From the sequence record PQ671645.1: a stretch of 64,000 nt of DNA. The stretch is one strand, 5' to 3'. A program made the position numbers and the translations under genes. The stretch comes from Escherichia phage DCP548. Shown in pieces: positions 6,490-51,353 of the stretch. The notes under the pieces are model-generated. The model was not told the DNA's origin. It did not search any database and saw only the letters and a list, made by a program, of their open reading frames with translations. Within the stretch, counting starts at the first letter, position 1. The number at the start of each line of letters is the position of its first letter.

Positions 6490-6535
6490 GTTTGTTGATG
6501 AACTTATTATACTCCAAATGGGACCGAAGTCCCAT
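6490..6535 (-). promoter_or_regulatory. Early promoter-like -10 (GAGTATAAT) with adjacent 7-bp UUCG-tetraloop hairpin directly after the regA stop
   Basis: Minus strand reads atgggac-TTCG-gtcccat then ttggagTATAATaag upstream of gene 43. Confidence 0.45.
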
Positions 6536-6539
6536 TGCT

Positions 6540-13143: not shown

Positions 13144-13171
13144 GCAAAAAAAGGAACTCCGAAGAGTTCCT
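13144..13171 (-). terminator. Rho-independent terminator (8-bp stem, UUCG loop, U-run) on the minus strand
   Basis: Minus strand aggaactc-TTCG-gagttcct followed by ttttttt. Confidence 0.6.
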
Positions 13172-14104: not shown

Positions 14105-14645
14105 ATAAAAAATCCAAACTAGGCGAATCGCTAACAACTTCCTTCTTTTCAGCCCCAGGAGCTTTATAAGCGGATTCTTCATAATGCGTCATTTTATCGT
14201 AGATGTCTTGAATAAACGTTTCATCTACCAACGCTACCATATCATCGTCATGACTGTCGTAGACGTTATGAACGAAGTAACTATATTTCTTTGCAACTTC
14301 CTTACGCTCTTTTTTGATACGTTGGACAAAAGCATTAAAACAAGCTCGAGTTATGTATGCATGTGGGTTATTGTACTTAGTTTCGTCGAAATTATGAAGT
14401 CCCTTAATAGAGGCTTCAATCCCATCTGCAATCATCTCCTGCTTCCAAGACTGGGTATATCCTGAAAAGTTGAAACGTTTGGACAGGCCTTCGGCGATAA
14501 GCATAATTGCTAAACCGATGGTATCATTCTGACGAATAATTTTGTTTGGGTCTTTATTATTTAAGAGCTCCTTTTTCCACTCGATTATAGCGGCGAGAAG
14601 CTCTTTATTATTCACATAGTTATTTTTAGGTTTTTGTTCAGTCAT
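14088..14645 (-). CDS. 55: Late-transcription sigma factor
   Basis: 185 aa; near-identical to remembered T4 gp55 ([52 protein letters not shown]). Confidence 0.95.
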
Positions 14646-14717
14646 AAGTACCTCTTAGCTCAATTCATAGGTCTATTATATCATAATATTTAGAGACCTA
14701 TCTTAAAGCACGAGATA

Positions 14718-16800: not shown

Positions 16801-17099
16801 GGCTTAATTTCCTTCGCAATTGAACAGAAGATACCACGGTCACAAAGCATTTCACCAATTTCTGGATATTTGATCGAACGGTACCAAACATCCAGGCTTG
16901 AAACTCTGGTTATCTGTACTGCATTACCATTGACAGAATAGTACTGGTCAACCTTAATTTCTTTATCTTCAATTGTCATTTTATTTTCCTCTATAGTGGA
17001 TGGTTTAATCTTAACACATCTATTGAGGATGTAAACTGTTTTATGAAAATATTTTCGATTTGAGAGGGGCACAAGGAGATAGTGAAGTGAAGATTCCAA
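16797..17099 (-). CDS. Hypothetical protein
   Basis: 100 aa ORF. Confidence 0.35.
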   Translation of the reverse strand: MESSLHYLLVPLSNRKYFHKTVYILNRCVKIKPSTIEENKMTIEDKEIKVDQYYSVNGNAVQITRVSSLDVWYRSIKYPEIGEMLCDRGIFCSIAKEIKP

Positions 17100-23103: not shown

Positions 23104-24047
23104 TATAAAACCTCAATGGCATTTCGTAAACCATCAGCTTTTGCATTCAGAGCTTTTAATGATTTAGTTTGTTCTGCAATCTGGGCTTCGACTTCTTTCA
23201 GGCGAGATTTGAGATATTCGCGTTCTTCTCTTAAGTTATCAACTTTTTCTGCTTTAGGCTCTTTAATAGGCTTATACTCGTTAGGGTTCTTCAACTTAAT
23301 TTGAATGCGAGAACTGTATAACATTGAACCATTATCTTCGGTTTCATCATACATTTCTACCACGTCCATGATTCTTAACATCATGCGAAGTTTATAAGAC
23401 AGCGAACGAATGGTTTTGTTGTGCTTATTAATTTCTTCGGCTTTCATGGTACCGAGATTACGTGAGTAGTAATAAGGAACCTGGATATCAATTGATAACG
23501 ATGCGGTACCATTACCTGTTGGTTTGAACACTGCAGTAACCCAATCTTTAGCATGAACTGTATTTGTACGATCATCGCCACCTGTGAATAATTTACGTGA
23601 ATGTTTAAAAAGCATATTCACTTGGTTATTGAATTCACAAGCAAATTTATCAGCAAATTTAGTTTCAGGAATGGTAGATAACCAATCAGCCAAATGAGTC
23701 TTTTTAACATCATTAACAATAGTGAATTCAACCAAATCGGTTTTAGATGTCACAGATTTAATAAAGCTCGGCTTCATAAAGTTTTTAATGTTATCGCGAG
23801 CTACAGTAGAAGATAATAAACGAGAACGTTTGAACCATTGAAGCAGTGTCCCTAATGAATGAGAATATGCATTCTGAGTATCTTTACAGATATGATTTTC
23901 TTGGCCTGTGTATGTACCAAAATCGCGAAGAATACCACTTACTACAACTCGGTGTGGAACATCAAATCCTAATGAACCAGAAGCACGTTGGGCATGAACG
24001 TTAGCGATAAGACCTGCAAAATAATCAATGTAATGTGAACGTGTCAT
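23103..24047 (-). CDS. Hypothetical protein with C-terminal coiled coil
   Basis: 314 aa; first of three tandem genes of similar size. Confidence 0.4.
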   Translation of the reverse strand: MTRSHYIDYFAGLIANVHAQRASGSLGFDVPHRVVVSGILRDFGTYTGQENHICKDTQNAYSHSLGTLLQWFKRSRLLSSTVARDNIKNFMKPSFIKSVTSKTDLVEFTIVNDVKKTHLADWLSTIPETKFADKFACEFNNQVNMLFKHSRKLFTGGDDRTNTVHAKDWVTAVFKPTGNGTASLSIDIQVPYYYSRNLGTMKAEEINKHNKTIRSLSYKLRMMLRIMDVVEMYDETEDNGSMLYSSRIQIKLKNPNEYKPIKEPKAEKVDNLREEREYLKSRLKEVEAQIAEQTKSLKALNAKADGLRNAIEVL

Positions 24048-24109
24048 AATATTTTCCTCTCGTTAAGATAGAAAGATTATACTCCAACCATCCTTGGTTG
24101 TAAACTGAT

Positions 24110-25045
24110 TTATGATTTTAATGCATTCATTGCGTTAAAAAGTTTAGAGTACTGCAACTGGAGCTTGGTAACTACTTGTTGAGCATCACGAAGCTTAGCT
24201 TGTGCTTTGTCAAGTTCAACAGACAGTTGGTCCACAGTGGCTTTGATTTGATTATAATAGTAATCTTCGGCAGGAAGAAGACCGTTAGAGATTTCCAGTT
24301 TAGTCGACGGTGAAGTGTATATAGATGGAGCAGTAAAATATGCACCTTGAACTTCAGCATTGCCAATTGGGGTTGTAGTAATTGACGCTTCGAACGTTGC
24401 ATTTTCCTTTTTAAGATTTTGATAGTATTCAGAGTCTTTGTGCCACCATGGCGCAGGAACCTTTTTACCAATAGATACACGAGCCTGGATAGCGATATGA
24501 CCCTTATTCTTGATAGGGTTGATAATATTAAGCTCACGAGAATAAATTGCTTTAATCTGGTGGATATTATCACCTAACACTTCCAACGCTTGGTGGAATA
24601 CACGAGCAACGTTATCATTCTTAGGTTTATACGTAAGAGTGAACTCGTTCTCACTGATAACCATGATTTCTAACTTATCGTAAGTATATTTCAAATGTTT
24701 CATGTTAATTGCTTGAGGACGAATACGAGAAGCAATGGCCATCAGATTGTTAAGGTTATTCCTGAACTGCTTAGCGAAATATTGTCCTTCACCGCCAATA
24801 CAAAAATTACGAAGTTTCTGTTTGGCTAATAAACGGCTGAACTCACCATTTTTAATGAACTCTTTAACGGGTGTGTTAGTAACGCATTCAAATTGAGTAA
24901 ACTTACGAGAATTAATCCCATAATATGAACAGATTTCCTCAATCTCTTCAGGAGTCTTTACAGGCATACGGATAGGATTAGGTCCTGGGGTATATGCGTT
25001 CGAGGTAAATTCTTTGATAAGTTCTCTACGTGTAATAGAAGCCAT
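24110..25045 (-). CDS. Hypothetical protein with C-terminal coiled coil
   Basis: 311 aa; preceded by an early promoter cassette nearly identical to the one before 25101..26096. Confidence 0.4.
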   Translation of the reverse strand: MASITRRELIKEFTSNAYTPGPNPIRMPVKTPEEIEEICSYYGINSRKFTQFECVTNTPVKEFIKNGEFSRLLAKQKLRNFCIGGEGQYFAKQFRNNLNNLMAIASRIRPQAINMKHLKYTYDKLEIMVISENEFTLTYKPKNDNVARVFHQALEVLGDNIHQIKAIYSRELNIINPIKNKGHIAIQARVSIGKKVPAPWWHKDSEYYQNLKKENATFEASITTTPIGNAEVQGAYFTAPSIYTSPSTKLEISNGLLPAEDYYYNQIKATVDQLSVELDKAQAKLRDAQQVVTKLQLQYSKLFNAMNALKS

Positions 25046-25100
25046 TTTATATTCCTCATGTTGAAAAATTTATTATACTCCAACCATCCTTGGTTGTACA

Positions 25101-26158: not shown

Positions 26159-26686
26159 TTATGCGTGAACCGTCTTTAAACGTTCTTCAAATTTCCGAAG
26201 AGTACTAATACGTTCTGCTTTCTGTTTTGTATAGTTTGCAATACGTTCTGAAGTGAGAGCGTATCGTTCATTTACTGTTTCTTTCATGAAGTCAGGGATT
26301 TCACGAGAAGCTTTAATTTCGTCAAACTTGTCGAGTACTGCCTGGTCTTCAGCGATTAAATTTTCGTACATCTCGATATCTTTCTTGATAAACTCGATAT
26401 CTTCCTGGGTTACTTTGGATAAACGAGATGCTTTATCCTTTTTGTACTGCTCGTTAGTTTCACGAGACCAGAATAATGTACGTTTTTTGTTAGTGTTTTT
26501 GTAGACTTCCACAATTCCAACTGAATCGATGATAGCAATCCAATTCCAGCGAGATTTGAAAATCTGACCTCCGTCCACGGTAATCTCGTTACCATAAGCA
26601 ACGTCATTAAAGAACTTGCTTTGTGCTTCAGATTTAAATTTACCGTCGTTATAATTTACCAGGTTGAAAATATCTTTAGCGTTCAT
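26159..26686 (-). CDS. Hypothetical protein
   Basis: 175 aa ORF. Confidence 0.4.
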   Translation of the reverse strand: MNAKDIFNLVNYNDGKFKSEAQSKFFNDVAYGNEITVDGGQIFKSRWNWIAIIDSVGIVEVYKNTNKKRTLFWSRETNEQYKKDKASRLSKVTQEDIEFIKKDIEMYENLIAEDQAVLDKFDEIKASREIPDFMKETVNERYALTSERIANYTKQKAERISTLRKFEERLKTVHA

Positions 26687-26744
26687 GTTTTACCTCCAGT
26701 AGTTGATAGGTCTATAATAACATAACTATAGACCTTGTAAACAA

Positions 26745-27170: not shown

Positions 27171-28172
27171 TTATTTCAGTAAAGTTACTTCAGAGATTTC
27201 CTCCCAACCATCTTTATCAGTTGAAATAAAATCTGCTACATAAAGAGCCGTACGTAATGATACATTGCGAAGACGAGATACGTTAGCCTTCATCCAGGAC
27301 AATGCTTTATACGTTTCTGCATCCGTCAGACCACGTTTCTGCATCATGTCAGTAGATAATATTACGTCTTCAACTCGAACCATAATCTCTTCATTAGAGT
27401 GTACTCCAAGATCGAGATACACTGAACGAGATACTAAAGCTTGAAGGTGTGGGGCAAGTTTCGAACCGCGTTCTAACTCTTTATCGATATCAACGTTTGT
27501 AATGAAAACGATAGTACCTTCAAACTCAAATTCTTTATCAATACCCTTATCATCGAGATAAGATGACGCAGTGCTCCAACAAACTTTGCGTTTATCTCCA
27601 GTATCTAATGCTGCTTTAAGAAGGTTCAAGATGTCCATATCTGAGAATACGTCAACGTCGTCGATTAAGAGAACGCTGTCTGCATCACGGTTGAGCCAAA
27701 GTTGTTCGTAAAGGCCAATACCAGAGATTTTACCATTAATGCTTTTGTATTTGATGAAACCATTATCATTAGCATTATTAAGTGCTTTATCCAGAGAATA
27801 CGTCTTACCAATACCAGCTGCACCTGAAATAATGAGTGAACGAATTTTGCCATCGATAATGCCATTCGTCATCATGTTCATTACTTTAAAGCGTTTGTTG
27901 ATACGAGTTTTCATATCTTCAGTGCTTTCAACAACTGCAACTGGTGACGTCTCAACTCCTTCCATTACGATGTCTGATTTGAAGACCCATACTCCACGTT
28001 CAGAACCATCAATCATAACGAAAATTTTACCATCACCTAAGTGGGAACATTCAGGATTAAGCTTTGCCGGGAACCAGGTCTTTGTGGCAACATAAGAACC
28101 AGAGATTTCGTTATTACGATAGATACCTTTTTTGATTTGAACGTTGAACATTTTATTCTCCAATTTACTCAT
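27171..28172 (-). CDS. P-loop NTPase (AAA-like ATPase)
   Basis: 333 aa; Walker A GAAGIGKT and Walker B LLIDDVD. Confidence 0.5.
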   Translation of the reverse strand: MSKLENKMFNVQIKKGIYRNNEISGSYVATKTWFPAKLNPECSHLGDGKIFVMIDGSERGVWVFKSDIVMEGVETSPVAVVESTEDMKTRINKRFKVMNMMTNGIIDGKIRSLIISGAAGIGKTYSLDKALNNANDNGFIKYKSINGKISGIGLYEQLWLNRDADSVLLIDDVDVFSDMDILNLLKAALDTGDKRKVCWSTASSYLDDKGIDKEFEFEGTIVFITNVDIDKELERGSKLAPHLQALVSRSVYLDLGVHSNEEIMVRVEDVILSTDMMQKRGLTDAETYKALSWMKANVSRLRNVSLRTALYVADFISTDKDGWEEISEVTLLK

Positions 28173-28268
28173 TTCGTTTCGATAGGTCTATAATAACATA
28201 TCCTAAAAGCATGTACACCACTTTTTTAAATATTTTAACCCCCTAAAGGGACCCGAAGGTCCCCACAT

Positions 28269-30747: not shown

Positions 30748-30911
30748 TTTACCATACTCGTTTCAATAAGATTCACTATGCCGTTTACCATGTTATAAGT
30801 AAACATCGGATAATTGTATTGTACTACAACATAAGCGATAAGCAAAAGTTTCATTTTGTTCTCCATTTGTTTTGGTAGGATTACTATATCATAGTCCTAC
30901 CAAGACGTAAA

Positions 30912-31437: not shown

Positions 31438-31642
31438 CTGCCATCTTTTTCATAGCTCTGTTAATGTCGATGTCTCCATCTTCGCAACCATGAGCATTTT
31501 CCCAATCAGATACCGCATTAGCGTACTCTTCAATCAAAAACATTAACTTAGAAATTTTTTCTTTACGTGACATAACGTTCTCCTCTAGTAAGTAAGGACT
31601 ACTATAACACAACCTAAGGAAAAGTAAACTGATAGATGCCAA
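31394..31642 (-). CDS. Hypothetical protein
   Basis: 82 aa ORF. Confidence 0.35.
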   Translation of the reverse strand: MASISLLFLRLCYSSPYLLEENVMSRKEKISKLMFLIEEYANAVSDWENAHGCEDGDIDINRAMKKMADAHTELQMYVNEIM

Positions 31643-31667
31643 AAAGCCCCAACCTTTCGGAAGGGGC
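31641..31667 (-). terminator. Rho-independent terminator (GC stem GCCCC/GGGGC plus U-run)
   Basis: Minus strand gcccc-ttccgaaaggtt-ggggc then ttttt, right after the rI stop. Confidence 0.6.
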
Positions 31668-31674
31668 TAGTAAA

Positions 31675-31977
31675 TTAGATAGATGTAGGCTCTAATTTTA
31701 TTTTCATGAACTCGGCAAATTGTCTGGCAGTTTTTATGCCTTGTTCATGACATTCAAATGCATCATCACAGGGGCTATTTTTGTAATGCTTTGCCATATA
31801 CTTATAGAATTTTTCAGAATTCTCTACATTTTGAATTTCAAACAAAGTATATACGTTTTTAATCCCTGATTCCATAAAGTTATCAAAATATGGGTCGGTG
31901 TACGCAGTACCAACGATAGGAGTTGTTGCTGCAAAAAACCCCAGCATCGCCATGACAGCTATCGCTCTTAAGGCCAT
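31675..31977 (-). CDS. rI: Lysis inhibition regulator rI
   Basis: 100 aa; signal-anchor N-terminus and DPYFDNFMESGIKNVY...C..AFEC, matching remembered T4 rI. Confidence 0.85.
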   Translation of the reverse strand: MALRAIAVMAMLGFFAATTPIVGTAYTDPYFDNFMESGIKNVYTLFEIQNVENSEKFYKYMAKHYKNSPCDDAFECHEQGIKTARQFAEFMKIKLEPTSI

Positions 31978-34766: not shown

Positions 34767-35225
34767 CTAGATTTTAATCACTGCTTTAGAAGCTTTTCCG
34801 GGTAGTCGTTTACTGTTAATAATAGCCATTCTGCATTGAAGAGTCTTCATTTTGAATGCTGGATTTTCGCGACAAACTGTAAGTCCTAACCAAAGATTTC
34901 CATCAGTTATTTCTAAACGGCCTGGGCGATATTCGACACCTTCGACAAAATCTTCATCAACATCTGGACGTGCTGGCATTGATAAAAATTCTGCAACTTC
35001 TTTAACATGATTTTTTACTTTACGAAATAATTCAAAAACGTAATTCTCATCTATTTCTCTCTGGATGGCACGATCTAAGAGATGTTGAGAATACTTGATA
35101 TGAAAGCCTGGTAGTCCAAGAGACTTTGCAGCATCTTTTATACTGGCATTTATTTTGCGGAACTCCGTTTCAAAGATTCGACGGAGTTTATTACGGCGGA
35201 TAAAAACGTCTGAATTGATAGTCAT
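34767..35225 (-). CDS. regB: Site-specific endoribonuclease RegB
   Basis: 152 aa; close match to remembered T4 RegB. Confidence 0.9.
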   Translation of the reverse strand: MTINSDVFIRRNKLRRIFETEFRKINASIKDAAKSLGLPGFHIKYSQHLLDRAIQREIDENYVFELFRKVKNHVKEVAEFLSMPARPDVDEDFVEGVEYRPGRLEITDGNLWLGLTVCRENPAFKMKTLQCRMAIINSKRLPGKASKAVIKI

Positions 35226-35234
35226 TTTGATTTC

Positions 35235-35280
35235 TCCTCTAGTTGACAGGTCTATAGTAACACAACTAGAGGAGAAGTAA
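35235..35280 (-). promoter_or_regulatory. Early promoter with 14-bp inverted repeat (promoter-stem-loop cassette) upstream of regB
   Basis: Minus strand GTTTAC-ttctcctctagttg-tgtTACTATAGAcctgt-caactagaggagaa-ATG. Confidence 0.45.
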
Positions 35281-35281
35281 A

Positions 35282-38447: not shown

Positions 38448-38861
38448 TTAGTAAATTGATTTACCATAGTATTTGTACCAAGTCGGACGTTGAGCAATTT
38501 TTTCGTCTAAGCGTGCTTGACTTATCGCAATGGACGCTTCGGACGGGACATAATTATTACGAAATTCGGCAGGGATGTCGGAAATATCCTGGACAGTCGT
38601 GTCCTTGATTTTGAAACCACGTTTCAAGCATTCGGCGATTAGCTCGATTTGACGTAAACGTAAAAATTCGAGTTTGTCGTAAAAGAATGTTACGTGACCT
38701 GTGCCTAAGATAAATGTTGGAGAGATTTTAAAATCCTTGACACGTTTACCATTTTGAACATGTTTACGGACTGCACCAAATACGCGTGGTAATTCACGAT
38801 ACTCGGCCATAAGATGTTGGTCAGTCAGTTCAGAAACAAGTGTTAAATTGATACGAGTCAT
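38448..38861 (-). CDS. denV: Endonuclease V (pyrimidine dimer DNA glycosylase)
   Basis: Near-identical to remembered T4 endo V ([34 protein letters not shown]). Confidence 0.95.
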
Positions 38862-38919
38862 AATTTCCTCCAAGTAGTTGATGAATGTATAGTATCAAAA
38901 CCCTTGGAGGAAGTAAACA

Positions 38920-40893: not shown

Positions 40894-41579
40894 TACCAGC
40901 CTTCCATAGGGAATTCCAGATAAACTTGAGCGTTGACACGAATTTCGTTGGTAATCTTTTTAACTCGGTCTGTATTACGAGATACACGTCCGAACCAACG
41001 CCATCCATTACTAATTGCACGAGAACCAGTGTGCCATGTTTGCCAATCAAACTGAAGAAGAGTACGGTCTGGAGCTTCCCATTTCTCTAGTTCGCCTTTT
41101 TCGATTTTTTCGAGGACTTCTTTGTGCCACTGGCGATAGATAAGTTCGCCATCAGGAATCTGACTGAACTCTGCAGTTCCTGTTGCAAAATGAGTAGGAC
41201 ACACATCAGCGTTAACAAGACCAAGAATATGTTCAGAATGGTAACGAGGGTTGTCATAATCAGGTTGTCCTGCAGTAATAAAGTGTTGACCAACCGGAAT
41301 ATCCGGGCGTGGTACATCATCATGGTGATAACCTGGGATAGCAGGGTACCAACCGGGCATCAGCATGTGGACTCGTGAATCAAATACAACCTGGTCGGTG
41401 TTCCAATCATCAGGCAAGTTCATGATGAAGCTGCGAGTAATAGGACCACCGTTATTATAAGCAAATTCTAAACTACAGTTGAAGAACATAGGCTCGTTTT
41501 TAATCTGGTCATTTTTAATCGCATGAGCAAAACCACCTACTGCACGAGCTTGACTATTAAACACTTTAGAACTATTCAT
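40893..41579 (-). CDS. Hypothetical protein; possible Fe(II)/2OG-dioxygenase-like fold (weak)
   Basis: Start moved to the ATG with SD (MNSSKVF...). HHDD ... H ... R pattern is only suggestive. Confidence 0.35.
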   Translation of the reverse strand: MNSSKVFNSQARAVGGFAHAIKNDQIKNEPMFFNCSLEFAYNNGGPITRSFIMNLPDDWNTDQVVFDSRVHMLMPGWYPAIPGYHHDDVPRPDIPVGQHFITAGQPDYDNPRYHSEHILGLVNADVCPTHFATGTAEFSQIPDGELIYRQWHKEVLEKIEKGELEKWEAPDRTLLQFDWQTWHTGSRAISNGWRWFGRVSRNTDRVKKITNEIRVNAQVYLEFPMEGW

Positions 41580-41580
41580 A

Positions 41581-41886
41581 TTATTTTCCTCGACATTCTT
41601 TAACAAAATTTTCTAAATCTGTTGATTCAATAGCTTTTTTACGAGCTTCAGCGTGTTCTTCTTCAGTTAATCTACGTTTAAACTTGACCCAAACATTATG
41701 GTCGAAACCTGTTGTCGCGTATAATAACAGAGCACCAACGAATAACAAAAACGGTGATAAAAATACACAACCAGGAACACCGTCCATGCCATAGGCCTTT
41801 TGTAATACTGCAACAGAAAGCACAGCATAAAAAGGTGATGTAAGTATCGTTAAAAGGCCAATTCGGTTGGTTTCGGATAATTTCAT
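41581..41886 (-). CDS. Small membrane protein with C-terminal ENFVKECR tail
   Basis: Start at the ATG with GAGGAG SD (MKLSETN...); the track start is GTG inside the upstream promoter cassette. Confidence 0.4.
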   Translation of the reverse strand: MKLSETNRIGLLTILTSPFYAVLSVAVLQKAYGMDGVPGCVFLSPFLLFVGALLLYATTGFDHNVWVKFKRRLTEEEHAEARKKAIESTDLENFVKECRGK

Positions 41887-41902
41887 AATATTCTCCTCAT
41901 GT

Positions 41903-41940
41903 TTAATAGGACTACTATAACATAGTCCTATCAGTTTGTA
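41903..41940 (-). promoter_or_regulatory. Early promoter with embedded 9-bp perfect stem-loop (PeSL-like cassette)
   Basis: Plus strand ataggacta-ctataaca-tagtcctat followed by tgtacac; in sense orientation -35 GTACAA/TTTACA-like and -10 TTATAG within the loop. Confidence 0.45.
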
Positions 41941-41943
41941 CAC

Positions 41944-42162
41944 TTATTTTGACATTTCTTCGATGTCACGACGATACCCATCACGAACTTCACGAAGAGC
42001 TTCAAGGCCACACATAGGCTCGATACCAGTAATGTGAACTTGATTAATCTGATACTCTACATCTTCTAACTGAGCGAAAACATAACGACGTTCTGCTTCA
42101 CAACCAGGTTTAGCTTTACCGAAACGTTTATTCAAAGTAGTCATTTTTATATCTCCATTCAC
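41944..42162 (-). CDS. Hypothetical protein
   Basis: 72 aa ORF. Confidence 0.35.
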   Translation of the reverse strand: MNGDIKMTTLNKRFGKAKPGCEAERRYVFAQLEDVEYQINQVHITGIEPMCGLEALREVRDGYRRDIEEMSK

Positions 42163-42224
42163 TCATTTGTTTTGATAGGTCTATAGTATCAACAACTACA
42201 GACCTTGTAAACTGTTTTGTGAAA

Positions 42225-43181
42225 TTATTTGAAAGGTTTTACCATATGAAAGTTTTGTTTGAAACGCTTGACGTAATCGTCGTGTCCTAAGCTTTGGTAC
42301 ATACTTACTACTTTGCTATAATTTTCCCAAGCGAACTCACGGAACCATCCTGATGTGATTGATGTACAGACCTTTTCAAGGGCCATCATAAAACTATCAC
42401 GTGGATGGATTTTAAAGTCGTTAGGAATCTGTGAACGTTCAAGAGCTAATACACAAGCTTCTTCATATACACCGGCTAATTTGACCATTTCTGGTAACGA
42501 TTCGAACTTCTCGCGTGAGGTCATGACTTCAGAACCGTCTTTCATATAAAATGTATACGCTGGACGGTCTGTTAGTGCAATGGCTTCATGAATAGTATCA
42601 TGGTCATACGTATAGATGTCATCTTTAAAGAACGCACTTTTAGAAGTGTCAAGAACTGGGTGAGCATAGTTCAAGGTTTCTTTCTGGCGTTTTAGCATAA
42701 TTTCAGTAAGTTCATCGTTCAGTGTAACACCTTTACCACGAAGATACTGAATATGGTTCATAGTCTTTAAAAAGAATGGATTATTTTTCTTGAAACGATG
42801 AGACATCTTAATTGCAAGACATATCTCAGGAGTTGCCCAATAAAACCCGTTCAAACGGTCTTTAGACAAATTTTTCTTGGCGTATTTTAAAAGGTCATAA
42901 GAAGACGTGAAATCTTCAGGAGTGAGTTCACCGACTAATTCACGGACATTAGTGATTGCCGGAACAATATATGCTTCAAAATGAGTTTCGCGTCCATTAT
43001 GGAAGCATTTGAAAACTTGGACATCAGGGTTATCTTGATGAACATATACACCCATCATTTGATTTTTGAATGCATTCCAAGAACCTTGGTCCGCAATAAA
43101 GTCCCAATCGCTATTTTTGATAGCGCTAGAATCAATAAGACCATGATAGTGAAGTGCACGAGAACCAATAACTAACATCAT
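42225..43181 (-). CDS. Nucleotidyltransferase-fold protein
   Basis: 318 aa; N-terminal IGSRALHYHGL-x8-DWDF (GS ... DxD minimal NTase motif). Confidence 0.4.
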   Translation of the reverse strand: MMLVIGSRALHYHGLIDSSAIKNSDWDFIADQGSWNAFKNQMMGVYVHQDNPDVQVFKCFHNGRETHFEAYIVPAITNVRELVGELTPEDFTSSYDLLKYAKKNLSKDRLNGFYWATPEICLAIKMSHRFKKNNPFFLKTMNHIQYLRGKGVTLNDELTEIMLKRQKETLNYAHPVLDTSKSAFFKDDIYTYDHDTIHEAIALTDRPAYTFYMKDGSEVMTSREKFESLPEMVKLAGVYEEACVLALERSQIPNDFKIHPRDSFMMALEKVCTSITSGWFREFAWENYSKVVSMYQSLGHDDYVKRFKQNFHMVKPFK

Positions 43182-43205
43182 AATATTTTCCTCGGATTAA
43201 TTAAC

Positions 43206-43445
43206 TTAAATTTCACGACATGCGATATTATATTCATCCCAGAGGTCGTCATGTGAAGCCTCTACCAATGGAACGATTGTACCGTTTATGTCTTCATTAT
43301 AAGGGCAAATTGTACAGTGCGCATCTTCGAATCGGATGCCTTTGTGTTCAGATTTTTTATAACGCATATCAAATATCTTTGCAAACTTTTCACGAGTAAT
43401 AGTTTTAGCAACTACTTCGGTTCCGATACTTTCGTAATAAATCAT
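43206..43445 (-). CDS. Hypothetical Cys-containing small protein
   Basis: Start set at the ATG with GGAG SD (MIYYESIG...). Confidence 0.35.
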   Translation of the reverse strand: MIYYESIGTEVVAKTITREKFAKIFDMRYKKSEHKGIRFEDAHCTICPYNEDINGTIVPLVEASHDDLWDEYNIACREI

Positions 43446-43473
43446 TGTAGACTCCATTTAATTTGATAGGGCT

Positions 43474-43503
43474 ACTATAACATAGCCCTATCTTGTTGTA
43501 AAC
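43474..43503 (-). promoter_or_regulatory. Early promoter (-35 TTTACA, 17-bp spacer, -10 TATAGT) with 9-bp stem-loop
   Basis: Stem atagggcta/tagccctat differs from the 41903 copy by a compensatory base-pair change. Confidence 0.5.
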
Positions 43504-43507
43504 TGTT

Positions 43508-43705
43508 TTAGCAAGAATAACTAGATGATACCCAGCCTTGAACAGTAATACTATTATTTGATAACGAGATTGCGTCCTGGAGATTCAGACCCGCATTATC
43601 TTCAATCCACAATGTAACTTCTTCACGCTCTTCGGTTGCAATCTGGAACAGGTTTTCCAGGGCAGCTACTGCCGTACGTACAGCACAATCTAATTCACGA
43701 GACAT
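43508..43705 (-). CDS. Small protein with C-terminal GWVSSSYSC motif (paralog family member)
   Basis: 65 aa. Confidence 0.4.
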   Translation of the reverse strand: MSRELDCAVRTAVAALENLFQIATEEREEVTLWIEDNAGLNLQDAISLSNNSITVQGWVSSSYSC

Positions 43706-43714
43706 ATGATTTCC

Positions 43715-43987
43715 TTAACAAGTGTGAGAAGATGCAACCCAACCACCATCTTCAAGGCTCAAGTTGTAGTCGTATTGGTAAACGTCAGCCCATTCAGCAT
43801 AACCGTTTTTTGTACAACGTTCAAGATCGGCTTTAAGATGTCCTGGTGAATGATAGGTTCCACCCATGCCATAAGCTGGATACAAGTCGAATGTTGTGTT
43901 TTGTTTATCAGCAATTTCTTTGGCAGCCTCAATAGCTGCATAGATTTTTGCTACGGCTTCAGCCAGTTCGGTTTGTTCTTTAGACAT
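43715..43987 (-). CDS. Small protein with C-terminal GGWVASSHTC motif (paralog family member)
   Basis: 90 aa. Confidence 0.4.
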   Translation of the reverse strand: MSKEQTELAEAVAKIYAAIEAAKEIADKQNTTFDLYPAYGMGGTYHSPGHLKADLERCTKNGYAEWADVYQYDYNLSLEDGGWVASSHTC

Positions 43988-43996
43988 AATGATTCC

Positions 43997-44302
43997 TTAG
44001 CACAACGCAGAAGACGAAACCCAAGCACCTTCAGTAATAATGTAACCATTACCTTCACGCTTAACATCGCCACCATTATTTTCAATTTCATCTTTCATCC
44101 ACTGGGATACGATTTCACCCTTAGGATAATAAGTACGACCACTACCATAATCACCTACAGAAAATGATACGGCATATTGGTCTGCGATCTTTGTTGCTTC
44201 TTCTTCGATACGTTCAGCTTGATTCAGAAGTTTATAAATTGCATCTGAAGCGGATTTGGCATCATTAAACTCTGGTACTTTAATTTCAATAATCTTACTC
44301 AT
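43997..44302 (-). CDS. Small protein with C-terminal GAWVSSSALC motif (paralog family member)
   Basis: Start at the ATG with AAGGA SD (MSKIIEIKV...). Confidence 0.4.
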   Translation of the reverse strand: MSKIIEIKVPEFNDAKSASDAIYKLLNQAERIEEEATKIADQYAVSFSVGDYGSGRTYYPKGEIVSQWMKDEIENNGGDVKREGNGYIITEGAWVSSSALC

Positions 44303-44657
44303 TTCTACATTCCTTAATAAAGTTTTCGATTGTTTCATTTTCACGTCTAGCTAGGAGTTCATTATAACTAATCATTTGAGAAGCGTAAACCTTTTTATTT
44401 TTCTTGTTATGGTTTATAAAATCGTAGTAAAAATAGACTACAGTACAAAAGGATGCGATGGATGCAAAGGCTTGGGTATACCTTAAGTCCTGCCATTGGT
44501 CTGTGAATCCACCAGTGTTCCCTATAAATCCTAACACAACGCCGTCAATAAGAAATCCAACTAATCCAAAGGCAAATCCCATGCCAATACTCATAATAAA
44601 AATTAGAATGTTCTCACCAAGAGAAGGCCATACGGTTAAGAGTTGAGGCTTTTGCAT
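44295..44657 (-). CDS. Membrane protein with C-terminal ENFIKECR tail
   Basis: 120 aa; hydrophobic helices; conserved tail. Confidence 0.4.
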   Translation of the reverse strand: MQKPQLLTVWPSLGENILIFIMSIGMGFAFGLVGFLIDGVVLGFIGNTGGFTDQWQDLRYTQAFASIASFCTVVYFYYDFINHNKKNKKVYASQMISYNELLARRENETIENFIKECRNE

Positions 44658-45031
44658 CTTATTTCCTTAACAAATTCCATAGCTTCTTCATATTCATACT
44701 TTTTAACAGCTTCATCATACTGAGCTTGGGCTTTTGCGCACTGAACTTTCCATTCTCTTAATCGGGCTCTGTGATGACGTCCTTGGTACCAATATCCCAC
44801 CCAGTTAATAGGCATTAATAAAAACGGTACAATAAGTGGTGCGACGAACATTAATGAAAATGCTGCATCAGACGATATAACTTTATTGGAATCTAAAATA
44901 GCTCCTATAATCATAAAGATTAAAAATGCTAAAGCTAAAATAGGACCAAACAACACTTCATTAGGAATTAATTTACGTTTGTATTCGTATGCCCAGGGCT
45001 TAATTGGCATGTATAGGGTTGGCTTTGACAT
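44636..45031 (-). CDS. Membrane protein with C-terminal EFVKEIRCK tail
   Basis: Start at the internal ATG (MSKPTLYMP...). Confidence 0.4.
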   Translation of the reverse strand: MSKPTLYMPIKPWAYEYKRKLIPNEVLFGPILALAFLIFMIIGAILDSNKVISSDAAFSLMFVAPLIVPFLLMPINWVGYWYQGRHHRARLREWKVQCAKAQAQYDEAVKKYEYEEAMEFVKEIRCKSLNS

Positions 45032-45617
45032 ATTCTCTACATTCCATAATAAATTGCTCAAGGATTAAATTGTTAGTGAAATTAGGACTAACAACCATGG
45101 TTTCATAAAGCGCATCAATAGCACTTAAAGCATCAACTCTCTTAAGCAAAGGCTTGCCTTCATACATAGTTTCAGAATCGACGATTAAAGTGAAGTAGTA
45201 TTTTTTATTATTGACCAGAACTTCTGTATCAATATAAAACATGTTAGACCTTAAAAGCTTGTCTCTAAAGCCTACGTAATCATCTGAACGTTCACTGATA
45301 TAGTCCCATTCAGTGTTTAAACAACAAACAGACCATGTAGGAGCAACGAAATCAGTGAATCTAATATCATGGTCTGCAACTAGTTTAGCAATAGCTCCGA
45401 TATCATGAATCATAATACCTGGGGCTAATAAAGATTTTCGGTTATTTGCATATTCAGTTGTCTCATAAGAAGACGACCAGTACCATTTACGTCCAGTTGC
45501 AACATATCGTAATGAATCAACTAAAGACGTAGGTGGATTTACCTTATCTCGGAACTCTTCGAACATTGAGTCAATATCATTATTTTGGTTTCGCATGTTA
45601 ACTCCTTTATTATCCAA
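45000..45617 (-). CDS. Hypothetical protein with C-terminal EQFIMECR tail
   Basis: 205 aa, soluble. Confidence 0.4.
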   Translation of the reverse strand: MDNKGVNMRNQNNDIDSMFEEFRDKVNPPTSLVDSLRYVATGRKWYWSSSYETTEYANNRKSLLAPGIMIHDIGAIAKLVADHDIRFTDFVAPTWSVCCLNTEWDYISERSDDYVGFRDKLLRSNMFYIDTEVLVNNKKYYFTLIVDSETMYEGKPLLKRVDALSAIDALYETMVVSPNFTNNLILEQFIMECREYVKANPIHAN

Positions 45618-45645
45618 AAGGAGGACCGGAGTCCTCCGTATTATT

Positions 45646-46239
45646 TTATTTCAAAGAGTTAATATATTCTTGTACATCAGCAGAAGTGGTTTCGACACCA
45701 GCCGGAGTGCCATTGAACGTTTCAACACGAGTCAGAGTGTCTTCGATATCAACCTTAGTCAGTGCAGCGATTTCAATTACATCATCAGCCGTAGAGATAC
45801 CAAGGGCATTGGCTGCTCGAGTTTCACGAATGTATTCGAGTTTGATTGCCAGATTCTGACGAGCATCATCAAGTTCAACCACCTTACGAGCAATTTCAAT
45901 TCGCATAGCGGCATACCCGTCAGCTTTTGTATTAAGTTGTTCGGCAGTTCGACGATACAGAAGACCAAGCTTAGCATGCATGGTAACATCTTGTCCTTCA
46001 GCCAGGAGCTTACGAATTTCACGTTCCTTAGAAGCGGCTTGCTTGTTCTTTTCATTAACAAGTTCGCGAATACGTTTTTCTTCATTAATAGATTTAACAG
46101 AAGCCGTTTTTAGTTCTTTGATTTGGGTAATCAACTTATCTGCAGCTGCGTTATACTGTTCTTCGACAGTCAGATTTTTAGCCATAGCAGTACCCAGTTT
46201 AGTGCGGATGAATTCAACAAGTTTTTTCAGTGTGTTCAT
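45646..46239 (-). CDS. Coiled-coil protein (possible PspA/IM30-like; weak)
   Basis: Start at the ATG with AAAGG SD ([10 protein letters not shown]...); helical heptad-rich sequence. Confidence 0.35.
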
Positions 46240-46261
46240 ATTATTACCTTTCAATTGGTGG

Positions 46262-46302
46262 TTTATTATCCAATGAGAGCATTATACTCTGCTCTCAAGA
46301 GT
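46262..46302 (-). promoter_or_regulatory. Early promoter (-35 TTTACA, 17-bp spacer, -10 TATAAT); near-identical copy of the 15560 element
   Basis: Minus strand aaaaaataaTTTACAaactcttgagagcagagTATAATgctctcattgg. Confidence 0.55.
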
Positions 46303-46309
46303 TTGTAAA

Positions 46310-46537
46310 TTATTTTTTAATCAAATTGACATAAAACTCGGCGTCTTCCGGGTGCATGCCTTCACAGTATTCTTCAACCATGAACTTCTTAACAGCTTCA
46401 TAAGGACCACTCAGATTAAGCTCAGTTGTCCAGAACTTGGAATCTTGGACTGAATCGATACGAACTTCAGGGTGTCGGTTGCGAATAACTTCTTCGGTGT
46501 ATTCATAATCAACGACATCAATACTAACTTTAGCCAT
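46310..46537 (-). CDS. Hypothetical protein
   Basis: 75 aa ORF. Confidence 0.35.
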   Translation of the reverse strand: MAKVSIDVVDYEYTEEVIRNRHPEVRIDSVQDSKFWTTELNLSGPYEAVKKFMVEEYCEGMHPEDAEFYVNLIKK

Positions 46538-46583
46538 TTTGTTTTCCTCTTGATTTGATAGGACTACTATAACATAAACTTAC

Positions 46584-46811
46584 TTAGATGTAAATTATTT
46601 CAACGTCACCTTTAGCTGCTTTATAACCTTCAGCCCAAGATACAACAGAGTTTTTATCTGAGGATTCAAATTCAGGCATTGGACTTTCACCAATATTCAC
46701 ACAGTATGTTTCTTCATTTTCATCGAACCAAATAATTAAAGTAGTCATTTTGTTTACTCCTCTGTAGTTGATAAGTCTATAGTAACACCGTCCTTGGCGT
46801 TTGTACATCAT
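46584..46811 (-). CDS. Hypothetical protein
   Basis: 75 aa ORF. Confidence 0.35.
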   Translation of the reverse strand: MMYKRQGRCYYRLINYRGVNKMTTLIIWFDENEETYCVNIGESPMPEFESSDKNSVVSWAEGYKAAKGDVEIIYI

Positions 46812-47311: not shown

Positions 47312-47401
47312 AACATTTTCCTCTGTGGTTGATAAGTCTATAGTATCATGTTCTTAGAAGAAGTAAACATCTTTATGAAATATTTTTATGCCCTAGATAC
47401 C

Positions 47402-47428
47402 AAAAAGCCCCAACCGTAAGGAAGGGGC
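47402..47428 (-). terminator. Rho-independent terminator (GCCCC/GGGGC stem plus U-run)
   Basis: Second copy of the 31641 hairpin family. Confidence 0.6.
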
Positions 47429-48284: not shown

Positions 48285-48677
48285 TTATTTTGGCATATCA
48301 TCAATTTGCTCTCGACGCCGACGCCATAGATTAATCGCTTCATAAACACATTCTGCGTTTGGTATATGACGGCAATAATATAATGATTCGCGTTTCTGGA
48401 ACCGATGTTGTAATGGAATTTCGTTTAAAAGGTCTTTACGATCAAAGTATTCAAAACTAGTTAACCCAGAACGATTTTTAAGGAACTTCCAATGGCCAAA
48501 TTCATTTTGGAAATAAACGTAATCAGCGTGTTGATATAACGAATTAATCAACCGGTCGGAAATAACTGTATCCTGTTCATTAAAATAAAACGTTAAATCA
48601 TGAACTACCAGATAAATATTACCTTTCATATTTTCCTCACTTAAAGTTGGTCGAGACAGAAGGATTCTAACCTTCAC
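48285..48677 (-). CDS. Hypothetical protein
   Basis: 130 aa; the likely true start is the internal Met (MKGNIYLVV...). Confidence 0.35.
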   Translation of the reverse strand: MKVRILLSRPTLSEENMKGNIYLVVHDLTFYFNEQDTVISDRLINSLYQHADYVYFQNEFGHWKFLKNRSGLTSFEYFDRKDLLNEIPLQHRFQKRESLYYCRHIPNAECVYEAINLWRRRREQIDDMPK

Positions 48678-48708
48678 CTTTAACCTTAGAATGATTATAT
48701 GCTATCCA

Positions 48709-49377
48709 TTACACTATAGAAGCAATTAAATTGTTTACTTTATCATCTTTATAAACTTCAGAATAGTGGAGTTCATAAATTTCCCAGCCCAGGGATTTTA
48801 TAATATCATGTCTTTCCTGATAATATGGGGCCAGAATTTTCTTGTTATGATCGGAGTAATGTTGGTTACCGTTAACTTCAATAATTATTTTCTTATCCAT
48901 CAAAGCAATGTCACAGGAATATGCTCTATTTTTAACAGGTTGATATTCCTCAACAAATTGTATATTTGCTTCTATTAATTTATTTTTCAAAAATTCGCAC
49001 GGAACAGATTTGAATTTTGAATTCTTTTTCCAAGGGTGTTTATCTGGATTTTCCTTTAACCAGGTCTTCCGGGCTGCTGATATCTTTTGTTTGGATTCAG
49101 ACGAATGCTTTCGTCCTGTGCCTGCAGCAGACAATTTTTCTCTTGTTTCTTCAGAAACAACTAAAGAAATGCCCTTCTTTTTGGCAACCATGAATTGATT
49201 TAAATTACCAGATTCTTTGCGTGCTTTATTCATAGCAGCGACTGCATTTTTAGAACCCTCTTTATAAGAGGCGAGTTTTGGATTTTCAGAACACCATCTG
49301 GTATGACTTGCCATCCATCCCTTTGGTTTATCAGAAATATCAAATTCTTTATTGCAGTGTTTGCAGATGCTCATCAA
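48709..49377 (-). CDS. Putative free-standing homing-type endonuclease (zinc finger, NUMOD3-like repeats, Vsr/DUF559-like PD-(D/E)xK domain)
   Basis: N-terminal CKHC...HTRWC; repeats SEETREKLSAAGTGRK and SESKQKISAARK; C-terminal IIIEVNGNQHY. Confidence 0.45.
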   Translation of the reverse strand: MMSICKHCNKEFDISDKPKGWMASHTRWCSENPKLASYKEGSKNAVAAMNKARKESGNLNQFMVAKKKGISLVVSEETREKLSAAGTGRKHSSESKQKISAARKTWLKENPDKHPWKKNSKFKSVPCEFLKNKLIEANIQFVEEYQPVKNRAYSCDIALMDKKIIIEVNGNQHYSDHNKKILAPYYQERHDIIKSLGWEIYELHYSEVYKDDKVNNLIASIV

Positions 49378-49433: not shown

Positions 49434-49508
49434 TGGTGACCCTGGCTGGTTTCGATCCAGCTACCTATCAGTTATGAGCTGACAGCTCTCCCATTGAGCT
49501 ACAGGGCC
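49434..49508 (-). tRNA. tRNA with anticodon CAU (Met, or Ile if lysidine-modified), CCA encoded
   Basis: Hand-folded cloverleaf: acceptor GGCCCTG/CAGGGTC, D-stem GCTC/GAGC, anticodon stem GTCAG/CTGAT with loop CTCATAA, T-stem GCTGG/CCAGC, 3' ACCA. T-loop ATCGAAA is atypical. Confidence 0.7.
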
Positions 49509-50775: not shown

Positions 50776-50956
50776 TTTTATCCATAACGATAGCGATTAA
50801 GCCGATTAGAAATGCTACTACCAATGAGATAGAGTTTTCAGTTGTTGTCAGTAGTCCACAAATGAATCCTACAAACATCGAAAAACTAAAAGCCATTGAA
50901 GCAATTACTACAGCAACATTACGAATCAGTTCAGCGCGTTTCATTTTATTCTCCAT
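50759..50956 (-). CDS. Small membrane protein
   Basis: 65 aa, two hydrophobic helices. Confidence 0.4.
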   Translation of the reverse strand: MENKMKRAELIRNVAVVIASMAFSFSMFVGFICGLLTTTENSISLVVAFLIGLIAIVMDKIAKGE

Positions 50957-51012
50957 TTACTCATTTGTTTTGATAGGACTACTATAACATAGTCCTATCA
51001 TCATGTAAACTA

Positions 51013-51276
51013 TTAAATACCAGCTTCGCGTTTAACATAATCGACGTAAGCTTGGATAGCTTTCTTGCTGGTAATTTTTACCTGACCACGACCATTGCCT
51101 TCTTTAGAGTTTTTCTTAACAACTACATTACCATCTTTAACACCCCATACATGGACGTAAGTACCGATGTTTCGGTCGTAGAACATTGCATGGTCGTTGT
51201 TGTAAGAGAATGATTCGTAGTTCTCTGTCAGAGTAGAAGATTGAGATTCGGCGATAAATTCTTTATAGGTTTTCAT
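51013..51276 (-). CDS. ipI: Capsid internal protein (ipI position, CTS-bearing)
   Basis: N-terminal MKTYKEFIAES; directly upstream of 57B as ipI is in T4. Confidence 0.55.
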   Translation of the reverse strand: MKTYKEFIAESQSSTLTENYESFSYNNDHAMFYDRNIGTYVHVWGVKDGNVVVKKNSKEGNGRGQVKITSKKAIQAYVDYVKREAGI

Positions 51277-51353
51277 TTTATTTCCTTGAGGCTGTTTATT
51301 TGATAGGATGATAGTAACACACCATCATCCTTATGTAAACTGTTTTGTGAAAA

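Follow-up and report, generated by a model that had tools for sequence, protein, structure and literature searches.

Early promoter cassettes with embedded stem-loops in the RB69-like Escherichia phage DCP548

The variable region and its promoter cassettes

The stretch of Escherichia phage DCP548 analysed here (sequence record PQ671645.1; 64,000 nucleotides (nt), called the window) carries recurring cassettes that combine an early promoter with an inverted repeat. Bases 41000-46000 of the window are 95-97% identical to the Mosigvirus (RB69-like) Escherichia and Shigella phages JS09, APCEc01, SHSML-52-1 and SA79RD, and judged by its sequence the window belongs to a Mosigvirus, a T4-type phage. 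The cassettes are located in the regB–vs–ipII–denV–e–nudE–e.2..e.8–tRNA–ipI stretch, one variable (hyperplastic) region among those of T4-type genomes. Every gene there lies on the minus strand, and the motif is therefore to be read in reverse complement. According to Pfam, the gene behind the cassette designated 35281 encodes RegB (REGB_T4) and that behind 38917 encodes DenV (Pyr_excise). When the whole window was searched with the Rfam covariance models, the gathering score was reached by two tRNAs only, and no cassette hairpin was matched. Taken as a whole, the results make it rather probable that these are composite promoter-early stem-loop (PeSL), or T-even "early promoter plus stem-loop", cassettes, which would unite a hairpin in read-through RNA, a Shine-Dalgarno gate and patches of homology.

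A neutral scan for a -35 T[TG][TG]ACN, a spacer of N16-18 and a -10 TAnnnT yielded 25 promoter-like sites on the gene strand, each followed by a Shine-Dalgarno sequence and an ATG within 80 nt. The T4-type motif TTTAC-N18-TANNNT is enriched in the window (22 matches versus 5.7±2.2 expected), with 19 of the 22 on the gene strand. A scan with a generic sigma-70 consensus was dropped, since 66 sites were found where 62.9 were expected and the T4-type motif was required for discrimination. The 21 nt upstream of the promoters contain 42.5% A in comparison to a background of 32.5%, a value as high being reached in 0 of 5000 resamples. The leader measures 20-35 nt at most sites, and the Shine-Dalgarno sequence and start codon close the cassette at its 3' end. 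At 12 sites the stop codon of the upstream gene lies 0-5 nt before the -35, so that the cassette occupies the entire intergenic gap. The cassettes 47367, 31628 and 28217, which are situated in longer gaps, are preceded by a canonical GC-rich, T-tailed terminator, and their embedded hairpin is weak or absent. This is suggestive of a trend, in numbers too small for a test, in which embedded hairpins accompany tightly packed genes, and canonical terminators upstream accompany roomy gaps. The terminator-type hairpins concerned lie on the minus strand at ~47385-47410, ~31650-31680 and ~28240-28262, 20-35 nt upstream of the respective -35; further ones are found at 6517-6536 and 13152-13171, with GC-rich stems, some UUCG tetraloops and subsequent T-runs.

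A strong helix spanning the -10, defined by a duplex energy of -11 kcal/mol or lower, is present at 12 of the 25 promoter-like sites, in three geometries (Table 1). In type I (41942, 43502, 51009, 30911 and 46309), arm 1 takes up the 3' half of the spacer at about -26..-16, the loop reads TGnTATAG, and arm 2 extends from the last T of the -10 over positions -7..+4. In type II (42211, 26741 and 51339), arm 1 lies directly against the -35, and arm 2 stretches over the 3' half of the -10 as far as +1. In type III (35281, 38917 and 17035, weaker at 31628 and 47367), arm 1 at -30..-15 also abuts the -35 and reads TCTCC or TTCCTCC plus 5-9 more bases, while arm 2 is the Shine-Dalgarno sequence of the next gene with a complementary extension; the -10, the predicted +1 and the leader form a loop of 20-30 nt. 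The register varies between cassettes (pair sums -22 to -30). A small hairpin within the spacer was seen at 3 of the 25 sites and an upstream terminator-type hairpin at three to four, and about six have none. The stems of the spacer hairpins (24082-24098, 25078-25094 and 46785-46801, minus strand) covary, being CAACC/GGTTG, CGCC/GGTG and, in relatives, CACC/GGTG. The cassette 46594 has the promoter without a partner arm and serves as an internal control, indicating that the promoter consensus does not by itself impose the repeat; a complementary 5' arm is likewise absent from sites 28217 and 38176.

Table 1. Promoter cassettes of the window with their promoter elements, paired arms and downstream genes (all positions in window coordinates; bp, base pairs; aa, amino acids; ORF, open reading frame; SD, Shine-Dalgarno; UTR, untranslated region; z, fold z-score)
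Cassette	Type	Extent	Strand	Promoter elements	Arms or repeat	Pairing and fold	Downstream gene
41942	I	41884..41942	minus	-35 TGTACA 41937-41942; -10 TATAGT 41914-41919	41906-41931, ATAGGACTA/N8/TAGTCCTAT	9 bp exact, 12 bp with G·U in sense RNA	ATG 41886 (101-aa ORF)
42211	II	42142..42211	minus	-35 42206-42211; -10 TACTAT 42183-42188	42195-42206 (abuts -35) / 42176-42186	10 bp including one G·U; z -4.30	ATG 42144 (66-aa ORF)
43502	I	43443..43502	minus	-10 TATAGT 43474-43479	43465-43492, GATAGGGCTA/N8/TAGCCCTATC	10 bp; -18.7 kcal/mol, z -5.93	ATG 43445 (79-aa ORF)
51009	I	50942..51009	minus		50971-51000, TGATAGGACTA/N8/TAGTCCTATCA	11 bp; z -5.95	ATG 50944 (61-aa ORF)
51339	II	51274..51339	minus		51321-51332 / 51304-51314, AGGATGATGG/CTATCATCCT	one G·U	ATG 51276 (87-aa ORF)
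46309	I (geometry)	46237..46309	minus	-10 TATAAT	46274-46297, TGAGAGCA/TGCTCTCA	arm sequence unrelated to other type I	ATG 46239 (e.6-like, 197 aa)
30911	I	30852..30911	minus		30890-30907 / 30868-30885, GGTAGGACTA/TAATCCTACC	sole A·C mismatches seen	
26741	II	26684..26741	minus		inverted repeat 26708-26735, AGGTCTATA/TATAGACCT		
35281	III	35223..35281	minus		35262-35277 anti-SD TTCTCCTCTAGTTG (abuts -35) / 35231-35246 SD CAACTAGAGGAGAA	-10, predicted start and 5' UTR in loop; -21.6 kcal/mol, z -5.14	regB
38917	III	38859..38917	minus		38895-38913 / 38864-38885, TTCCTCCAAG / CTTGGAGGAA	z -5.62	denV
17035	III	16977..17035	minus		17016-17030 / 16986-16999, TCCTCAATAG/CTATAGAGGA	one A·A mismatch	60-aa ORF
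31628	III (weaker)	31571..31628	minus		31607-31624 / 31577-31595	canonical terminator precedes	
24104, 25100		24045..25100	minus		spacer hairpin only, loop AAGGA(T/C)	4-6 bp	
46807		46746-46807	minus		spacer hairpin only, loop AAGGA(T/C)	4-6 bp	
46594		46535..46594	minus	same promoter	conserved downstream TAGTCCTATC; no complementary 5' arm		

The original prediction had described more than 15 intergenic sites of a single architecture, namely an early-type -35, a 17-bp spacer, a -10 and an inverted repeat with the -10 in or beside its loop. The three inverted repeats quoted in it (those of 41942, 43502 and 51009) are exact; each is combined, on the minus strand, with (G)T(T/G)TACA-N17-TATAGT, whose -10 occupies the loop or the top part of the stem, and the A·T to G·C double change between copies is real. 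The single architecture held only in part. A strong repeat spanning the -10 exists at 8 of the 16 sites listed (41903, 43471, 50975, 26700, 30860, 42170, 51295 and 35235), at the last of which the spacer actually pairs with the Shine-Dalgarno sequence. The remaining eight differ, and there are at least three geometries. Sites 24070, 25065 and 46770 have just a 4-6 bp hairpin within the spacer, the helix is weak or essentially absent at 28175, 46540 and 47325, and at 6490 a UUCG terminator-type hairpin adjoins a -10 without a -35. Site 14670 likewise lacks a -35, its 8-bp repeat surrounds TATAAT, and it may be either an early or a middle promoter. This repeat (14640-14700, minus strand) has the arms ATAGGTCT/AGACCTAT, and a MotA-box-like TGCTTTA lies upstream at a non-canonical distance. 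Good sites that had been overlooked are 46309, 38917, 31628 and 17035, and the existence of a class of hairpins that occupy the downstream Shine-Dalgarno sequence had not been noticed. With these refinements (several geometries, hairpins other than canonical terminators, a putative Shine-Dalgarno gate) our analysis supports the earlier interpretation as essentially right.

Selection on the paired arms

In a chimera control that keeps the promoter consensus, each spacer was paired with its own downstream segment and with those of all other promoters. In the window, own arms pair with a mean of -10.6 kcal/mol versus -7.6 for chimeras, and the observed mean was reached in 0 of 20,000 permutations. 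Among 122 unique cassettes from 13 genomes (the window and 12 related loci), 56% of own pairs but 15% of chimeras attain -11 kcal/mol or lower (0 of 5,000 permutations). In T4, strong helices are found at 9 of 18 sites (0 of 10,000 permutations). A gapless alignment of 106 unselected promoters with a 17-nt spacer showed 53.7% paired cells in the type I register versus 33-46% in slid registers, and the covariation score of this register was reached by 0 of 500 shuffles. Fold z-scores of individual hairpins range from -4.1 to -5.9, and 42 distinct arm pairs have at least 8 Watson-Crick bp. Among the matches listed in IMG/VR for TTTACA-N14-TGTTATAGT, about 100 come from unrelated viral sequences, in which no more than 4 complementary bases are contiguous; the few T4-like matches, by which about six cassettes were added, have 7-9.

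Compensatory changes preserve the pairing in orthologous promoters of T4 and of diverged phages. The promoter 51009 reads GATAGGACTA/TAGTCCTATC in the present phage and GATAGGGTA/TACCCTATC, GTGTAGGGATA/TATCCCTACAC or GGTAGGACTA/TAGTCCTACC elsewhere, and in two lineages it has switched to type III (TCTCCATTTG/CAAATGGAGA). The regB promoter is of type III with compensatory changes in nine lineages, i.e. the present phage, T4 and seven more. Beyond a 5-bp core of anti-Shine-Dalgarno and Shine-Dalgarno sequence, its helix is extended by TCTAGTTG, TCTTGACTG, TTTTAGT, TCTTTATG or TGTAAG, each with a matching partner, and the mean contiguous extension is 5.6 bp for own pairs versus 2.0 bp for cross-lineage pairings. 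The denV gene of T4 has the same type III design with other arm sequences. At the regB promoter of the related loci L027 and L028 (~320-400), two helices are nested, an outer one of anti-Shine-Dalgarno and Shine-Dalgarno sequence (TTTCCTT/AAGGAGA) and an inner GC-rich one around the -10 (GGGCCAT/ATGGCCC). The superiority of own over chimeric arms, the covariation of the type I register and the changes of both arms in orthologues support the view that the pairing is under selection as a structure, as had been proposed from the stems of three copies. This covariation is the first quantitative evidence we have found that T-even-type stem-loops are selected as structures, probably in sense-strand RNA.

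Gene exchange at the cassettes and relation to known elements

Comparison with relatives of the gene content flanked by cassettes revealed insertions and deletions with chimeric cassettes at the junctions. The related locus L003 lacks window positions 42206-41943, comprising the 66-aa gene and one cassette; its single remaining cassette resembles 42211 up to the -35 and 41942 thereafter, with the junction in the -35 hexamer. L003 is also without the 54-aa gene between the cassettes 46807 and 46594, the switch lying inside TAGaCcTATCAA. L001 and L013 carry an additional gene of ~290 bp at the -35 of the cassette 46309. In L003, moreover, 1.2 kb replaces the cassette 47367, and the gene between 51339 and 51009 is replaced both in L001 and in L003. 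Junctions of this kind match the pattern proposed for PeSL-mediated shuffling. Since the cassettes recur about 25 times in one orientation, they may also serve as short homology patches for the gain, loss and swap of small genes, and would offer a sequence-level handle on accessory-gene swapping in T4-type phages and on the insulation of packed early genes. Small genes behind several cassettes (minus-strand ORFs starting at 51276 and 38116, and one at ~8015 of L003) encode a common N-terminus MKTYKEF(I) and then diverge; replacement breakpoints between relatives lie ~25 nt past the ATG, and the first codons therefore act as part of the common cassette.

The elements are T-even-type promoter–stem-loop cassettes in a Mosigvirus and thus of a known kind. 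The PeSLs of RB49 and phi1 consist of an early promoter with A-rich sequence upstream, a stem-loop in one of five positions, which mostly overlaps the -10 or lies between it and the -35, and, at the 3' end, a Shine-Dalgarno sequence with ATG (PMC2839356). Their activities as promoters and attenuators have been measured, and mini-circle formation was demonstrated (PMC2839356, Arbiol et al. 2010). The cassettes of the window share with these PeSLs the upstream stop codon, the downstream Shine-Dalgarno sequence and ATG, a conserved unit of ~100 bp and clustering in variable regions. They also border small ORFs that vary among close relatives, show recombination from one cassette to another, and fall within the loose published definition, in agreement with the original prediction. 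In contrast to RB49, whose PeSLs have a near-consensus TTGACA, G/C-rich (polyG/polyC) stems and a measured terminator-like activity, those of the window have a T4-type (G)TTTAC, AT-rich stems without a U-tract and a subclass that pairs with the Shine-Dalgarno sequence.

Closer counterparts are the elements of the T-even internal protein loci, with T4 early promoters TTTACW-N17-TAYWAT and weaker AT-rich stem-loops of variable size and the form AGNA-loop-TCNT (PMC2839356, summarising Repoila 1994), which have been called analogues and not homologues of PeSLs (PMC2839356). Such cassettes are present in the ipI/ipII region of the window, and their design is also that seen in T4. PeSLs were later extended to PST/T4 and nt-1/KVP40 (Comeau et al. 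2014, PMC4122927). The stems of PST were placed "just upstream of the promoter" (PMC4122927), whereas here and in our scan of T4 most of them enclose the -10. The PeSL papers PMC2839356 and PMC4122927 treat neither RB69-like phages nor covariation nor translation, and hairpins that enclose a promoter are not described in the reviews of T4 transcription and RNA decay, Nolan 2006 and Durand 2006.

Read-through RNA, a proposed Shine-Dalgarno gate and alternative explanations

The start site is predicted at the A of CCTAtC because of the spacing rule for sigma-70, consistent with the C-rich positions -3..-1 of RB69 early promoters (PMC1524935). As this start lies after or inside the hairpin, the cassette's own transcript would lack arm 1 and only read-through RNA could fold; in types I and II the own transcript would, we infer, also be without nearly all of arm 2. 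The cassette may accordingly be read as stop codon, 0-5 nt, -35, 17 nt, -10, start site, a leader of ~22-30 nt, Shine-Dalgarno sequence and ATG, with a T4-type early promoter that the sigma-70 polymerase of the host would use and a spacer that would also supply an RNA hairpin with its 5' arm. As the 3' arm, the -7..+4 segment would serve in types I and II and the Shine-Dalgarno sequence of the next gene in type III. In types I and II, the hairpin may mark the 3' boundary of the upstream message as a pause or attenuation signal or as a block to 3' exonucleases.

For type III, the cost of opening the ribosome-binding site was computed for a transcript from +1 and for one starting 70 nt further upstream. 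It rises from 4.6 to 17.7 kcal/mol at 35281 (regB), from 2.9 to 13.9 at 38917 (denV) and from 2.8 to 10.5 at 17035, an increase of 8-13 kcal/mol confined to the read-through RNA, and changes by less than 2 kcal/mol at type I and II sites. Helices of 10-14 bp cover the GGAG at these three sites but not in types I and II. Together with the covariation, these energies suggest that the type III hairpin would hide the ribosome-binding site, permitting translation from the own early transcript and none from read-through RNA. Secondary structure inhibits RegB, which cleaves the Shine-Dalgarno sequence of its own gene (PMC3014915), and 16 GGAG sites that are structured and resistant to RegB were set aside unanalysed by Durand et al. 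(PMC1702504). We put forward only tentatively the more far-reaching proposal of a conserved gate that would limit the synthesis of RegB, DenV and several small proteins to transcripts from their own early promoters, the read-through (delayed-early or middle) RNA staying silent with its GGAG shielded from RegB, and in which types I and II would be boundary elements of sense-strand RNA and not terminators. If such a gate exists, it would help to end early protein synthesis abruptly and to make longer transcripts resistant to RegB, and the design at regB and denV predicts that translation is set by which promoter made the RNA.

Hairpins that sequester the ribosome-binding site and contain a promoter are known in T4 for I-TevI, I-TevII, I-TevIII, segB, mobE, e, soc and others, all of them stated to be late genes with the late promoter in the hairpin (PMC2988022). 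As in e, soc and I-TevI, the long RNA would bury the Shine-Dalgarno sequence in type III, and the promoter between the arms would yield a shorter, translated RNA without the 5' arm. In contrast to these cases, the internal promoter is an early sigma-70 promoter (GTTTAC-N17-TAnnnT) and the genes (regB, denV) are early, so that the gate would confine translation to the early period and not delay it. We found no description of an early-promoter Shine-Dalgarno gate at regB or denV; it is possibly an undescribed variant of a known design.

Several points weigh against the composite explanation. The start site was deduced from the spacing rule and published logos (PMC1524935). About half of the promoters have no hairpin, and the structure is therefore not essential to promoter function. 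A U-tract is absent 3' of the hairpins, so that attenuation would be non-canonical. The asymmetry between G·U and A·C pairs considered below is based on about ten events. Through coupling, type III repression could be lifted by a ribosome that terminates at the stop codon immediately upstream and melts the 5' arm. Finally, breakpoints at cassettes may partly result from selection against breaks within genes.

It is unlikely that the hairpins are ordinary rho-independent terminators of the upstream genes which overlap the next promoter by chance. They do follow directly on stop codons, and the SA79RD record labels the orthologous hairpins "rho-independent terminator; WebGeSTer" (a permissive predictor), some of them overlapping early-promoter annotations; in RB49, a GC-rich PeSL stem-loop cut read-through like a strong terminator (PMC2839356). 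However, a scan for hairpins followed by T-runs flagged none of the promoter hairpins on the sense (minus) strand, where the tails contain no U-tract and are A-rich (AUCAAAACAAAUG-like); the only one flagged, at 43465-43492, is on the antisense strand. The stems are rich in AT and measure 9-11 bp; those of type III have loops of 20-30 nt and end at the Shine-Dalgarno sequence, and true T-run terminators elsewhere in the window look different. What the elements share with intrinsic terminators is a stable RNA hairpin directly 3' of a gene; the missing U-tract, the low GC content and the negative scan of the sense strand set them apart. Without a U-tract they are not canonical terminators, any attenuation would be non-canonical, and the sequence gives no support to the published role as "effective terminator". 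The default label "rho-independent terminator" should be avoided for cassette hairpins.

An action of the structure in DNA, as a cruciform or single-strand hairpin that aids the opening of the -10 or as a site for recombination or junction-cutting enzymes, is likewise improbable. Internal non-Watson-Crick positions are G·T in eight cases (seven elements, plus one more in L126) and A·C in two (one element), two states which DNA would not tell apart. The 43502 orthologues in L001 and L003 (GATAGGGCTA/TAGTCCTATC) represent a G·U intermediate between A-U and G-C, which could also be explained by recombination between cassettes. Type I sense RNA is ~5 kcal/mol more stable than antisense RNA; for 41942 the values are -15.5 kcal/mol (z -4.07) and -10.6, since two G·U pairs lengthen the stem. 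Over all strong helices, the sense strand is the stabler one in 49 cases versus 24. On these modest numbers, the data favour a structure that acts in sense-strand RNA. Registers that vary and loops of up to 30 nt are moreover unfavourable for cruciform extrusion, and a 3' arm that is a Shine-Dalgarno sequence is sensible only in RNA. The position of the type I dyad axis on the first bases of the -10, with a loop TGnTATA, would suit a role in DNA, as would the junctions of recombination events 1-3 within cassettes and the mapping of the mini-circle crossover of an RB49 PeSL to the loop (PMC2839356). The crossovers seen here, however, map to common sequence (the -35 hexamer or the conserved TAGnCCTATCAA) and not specifically to loops.

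We regard it as very unlikely that the repeats are palindromic operators bound over the -10 by a dimeric protein of phage or host, for instance to shut early promoters off. The shut-off of early promoters has been described as incompletely understood (PMC3014915) and many type I arms have a common TAGG...CCTA core, but a fixed half-site is difficult to reconcile with so many distinct arm pairs that keep their complementarity, an unfixed register, G·U intermediates and the lack of a repeat at half of the promoters. The CCTA(T/C)C half is kept even without a partner arm (46594, 28217) and therefore looks like a promoter or start-site element. Hardly credible is the absence of any function, with complementarity as a by-product of the promoter consensus and of cassette duplication, for although 41942, 51009 and 43502 are obvious paralogues and the downstream segment is conserved as sequence, chimeras that keep the consensus fall short of the observed pairing, both arms change in diverged orthologues, and unrelated viral promoters of the same pattern have no repeat among the matches listed.

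Two further observations concern the same region. A leader of the form AUCAAAACAAAUGAGU(A/G)AAU(U)GGAGA(A/U)AUAAAAUG is nearly identical at 50944-50980, 28151-28190 and 42144-42182 (minus strand) and recurs in relatives; it holds an AUG without a Shine-Dalgarno sequence, whose frame relative to the main start varies. In the tRNA cluster, a 222-aa ORF at 48709-49377 (minus strand; segment 48676-49437) with matches to NUMOD3 and to a DUF559/Vsr-like endonuclease is flanked by the tRNA genes 49437-49508 and 48657-48718. Three close relatives have ~55 bp in place of the segment, which looks like the insertion of a free-standing homing endonuclease similar to segB in the tRNA cluster of T4.

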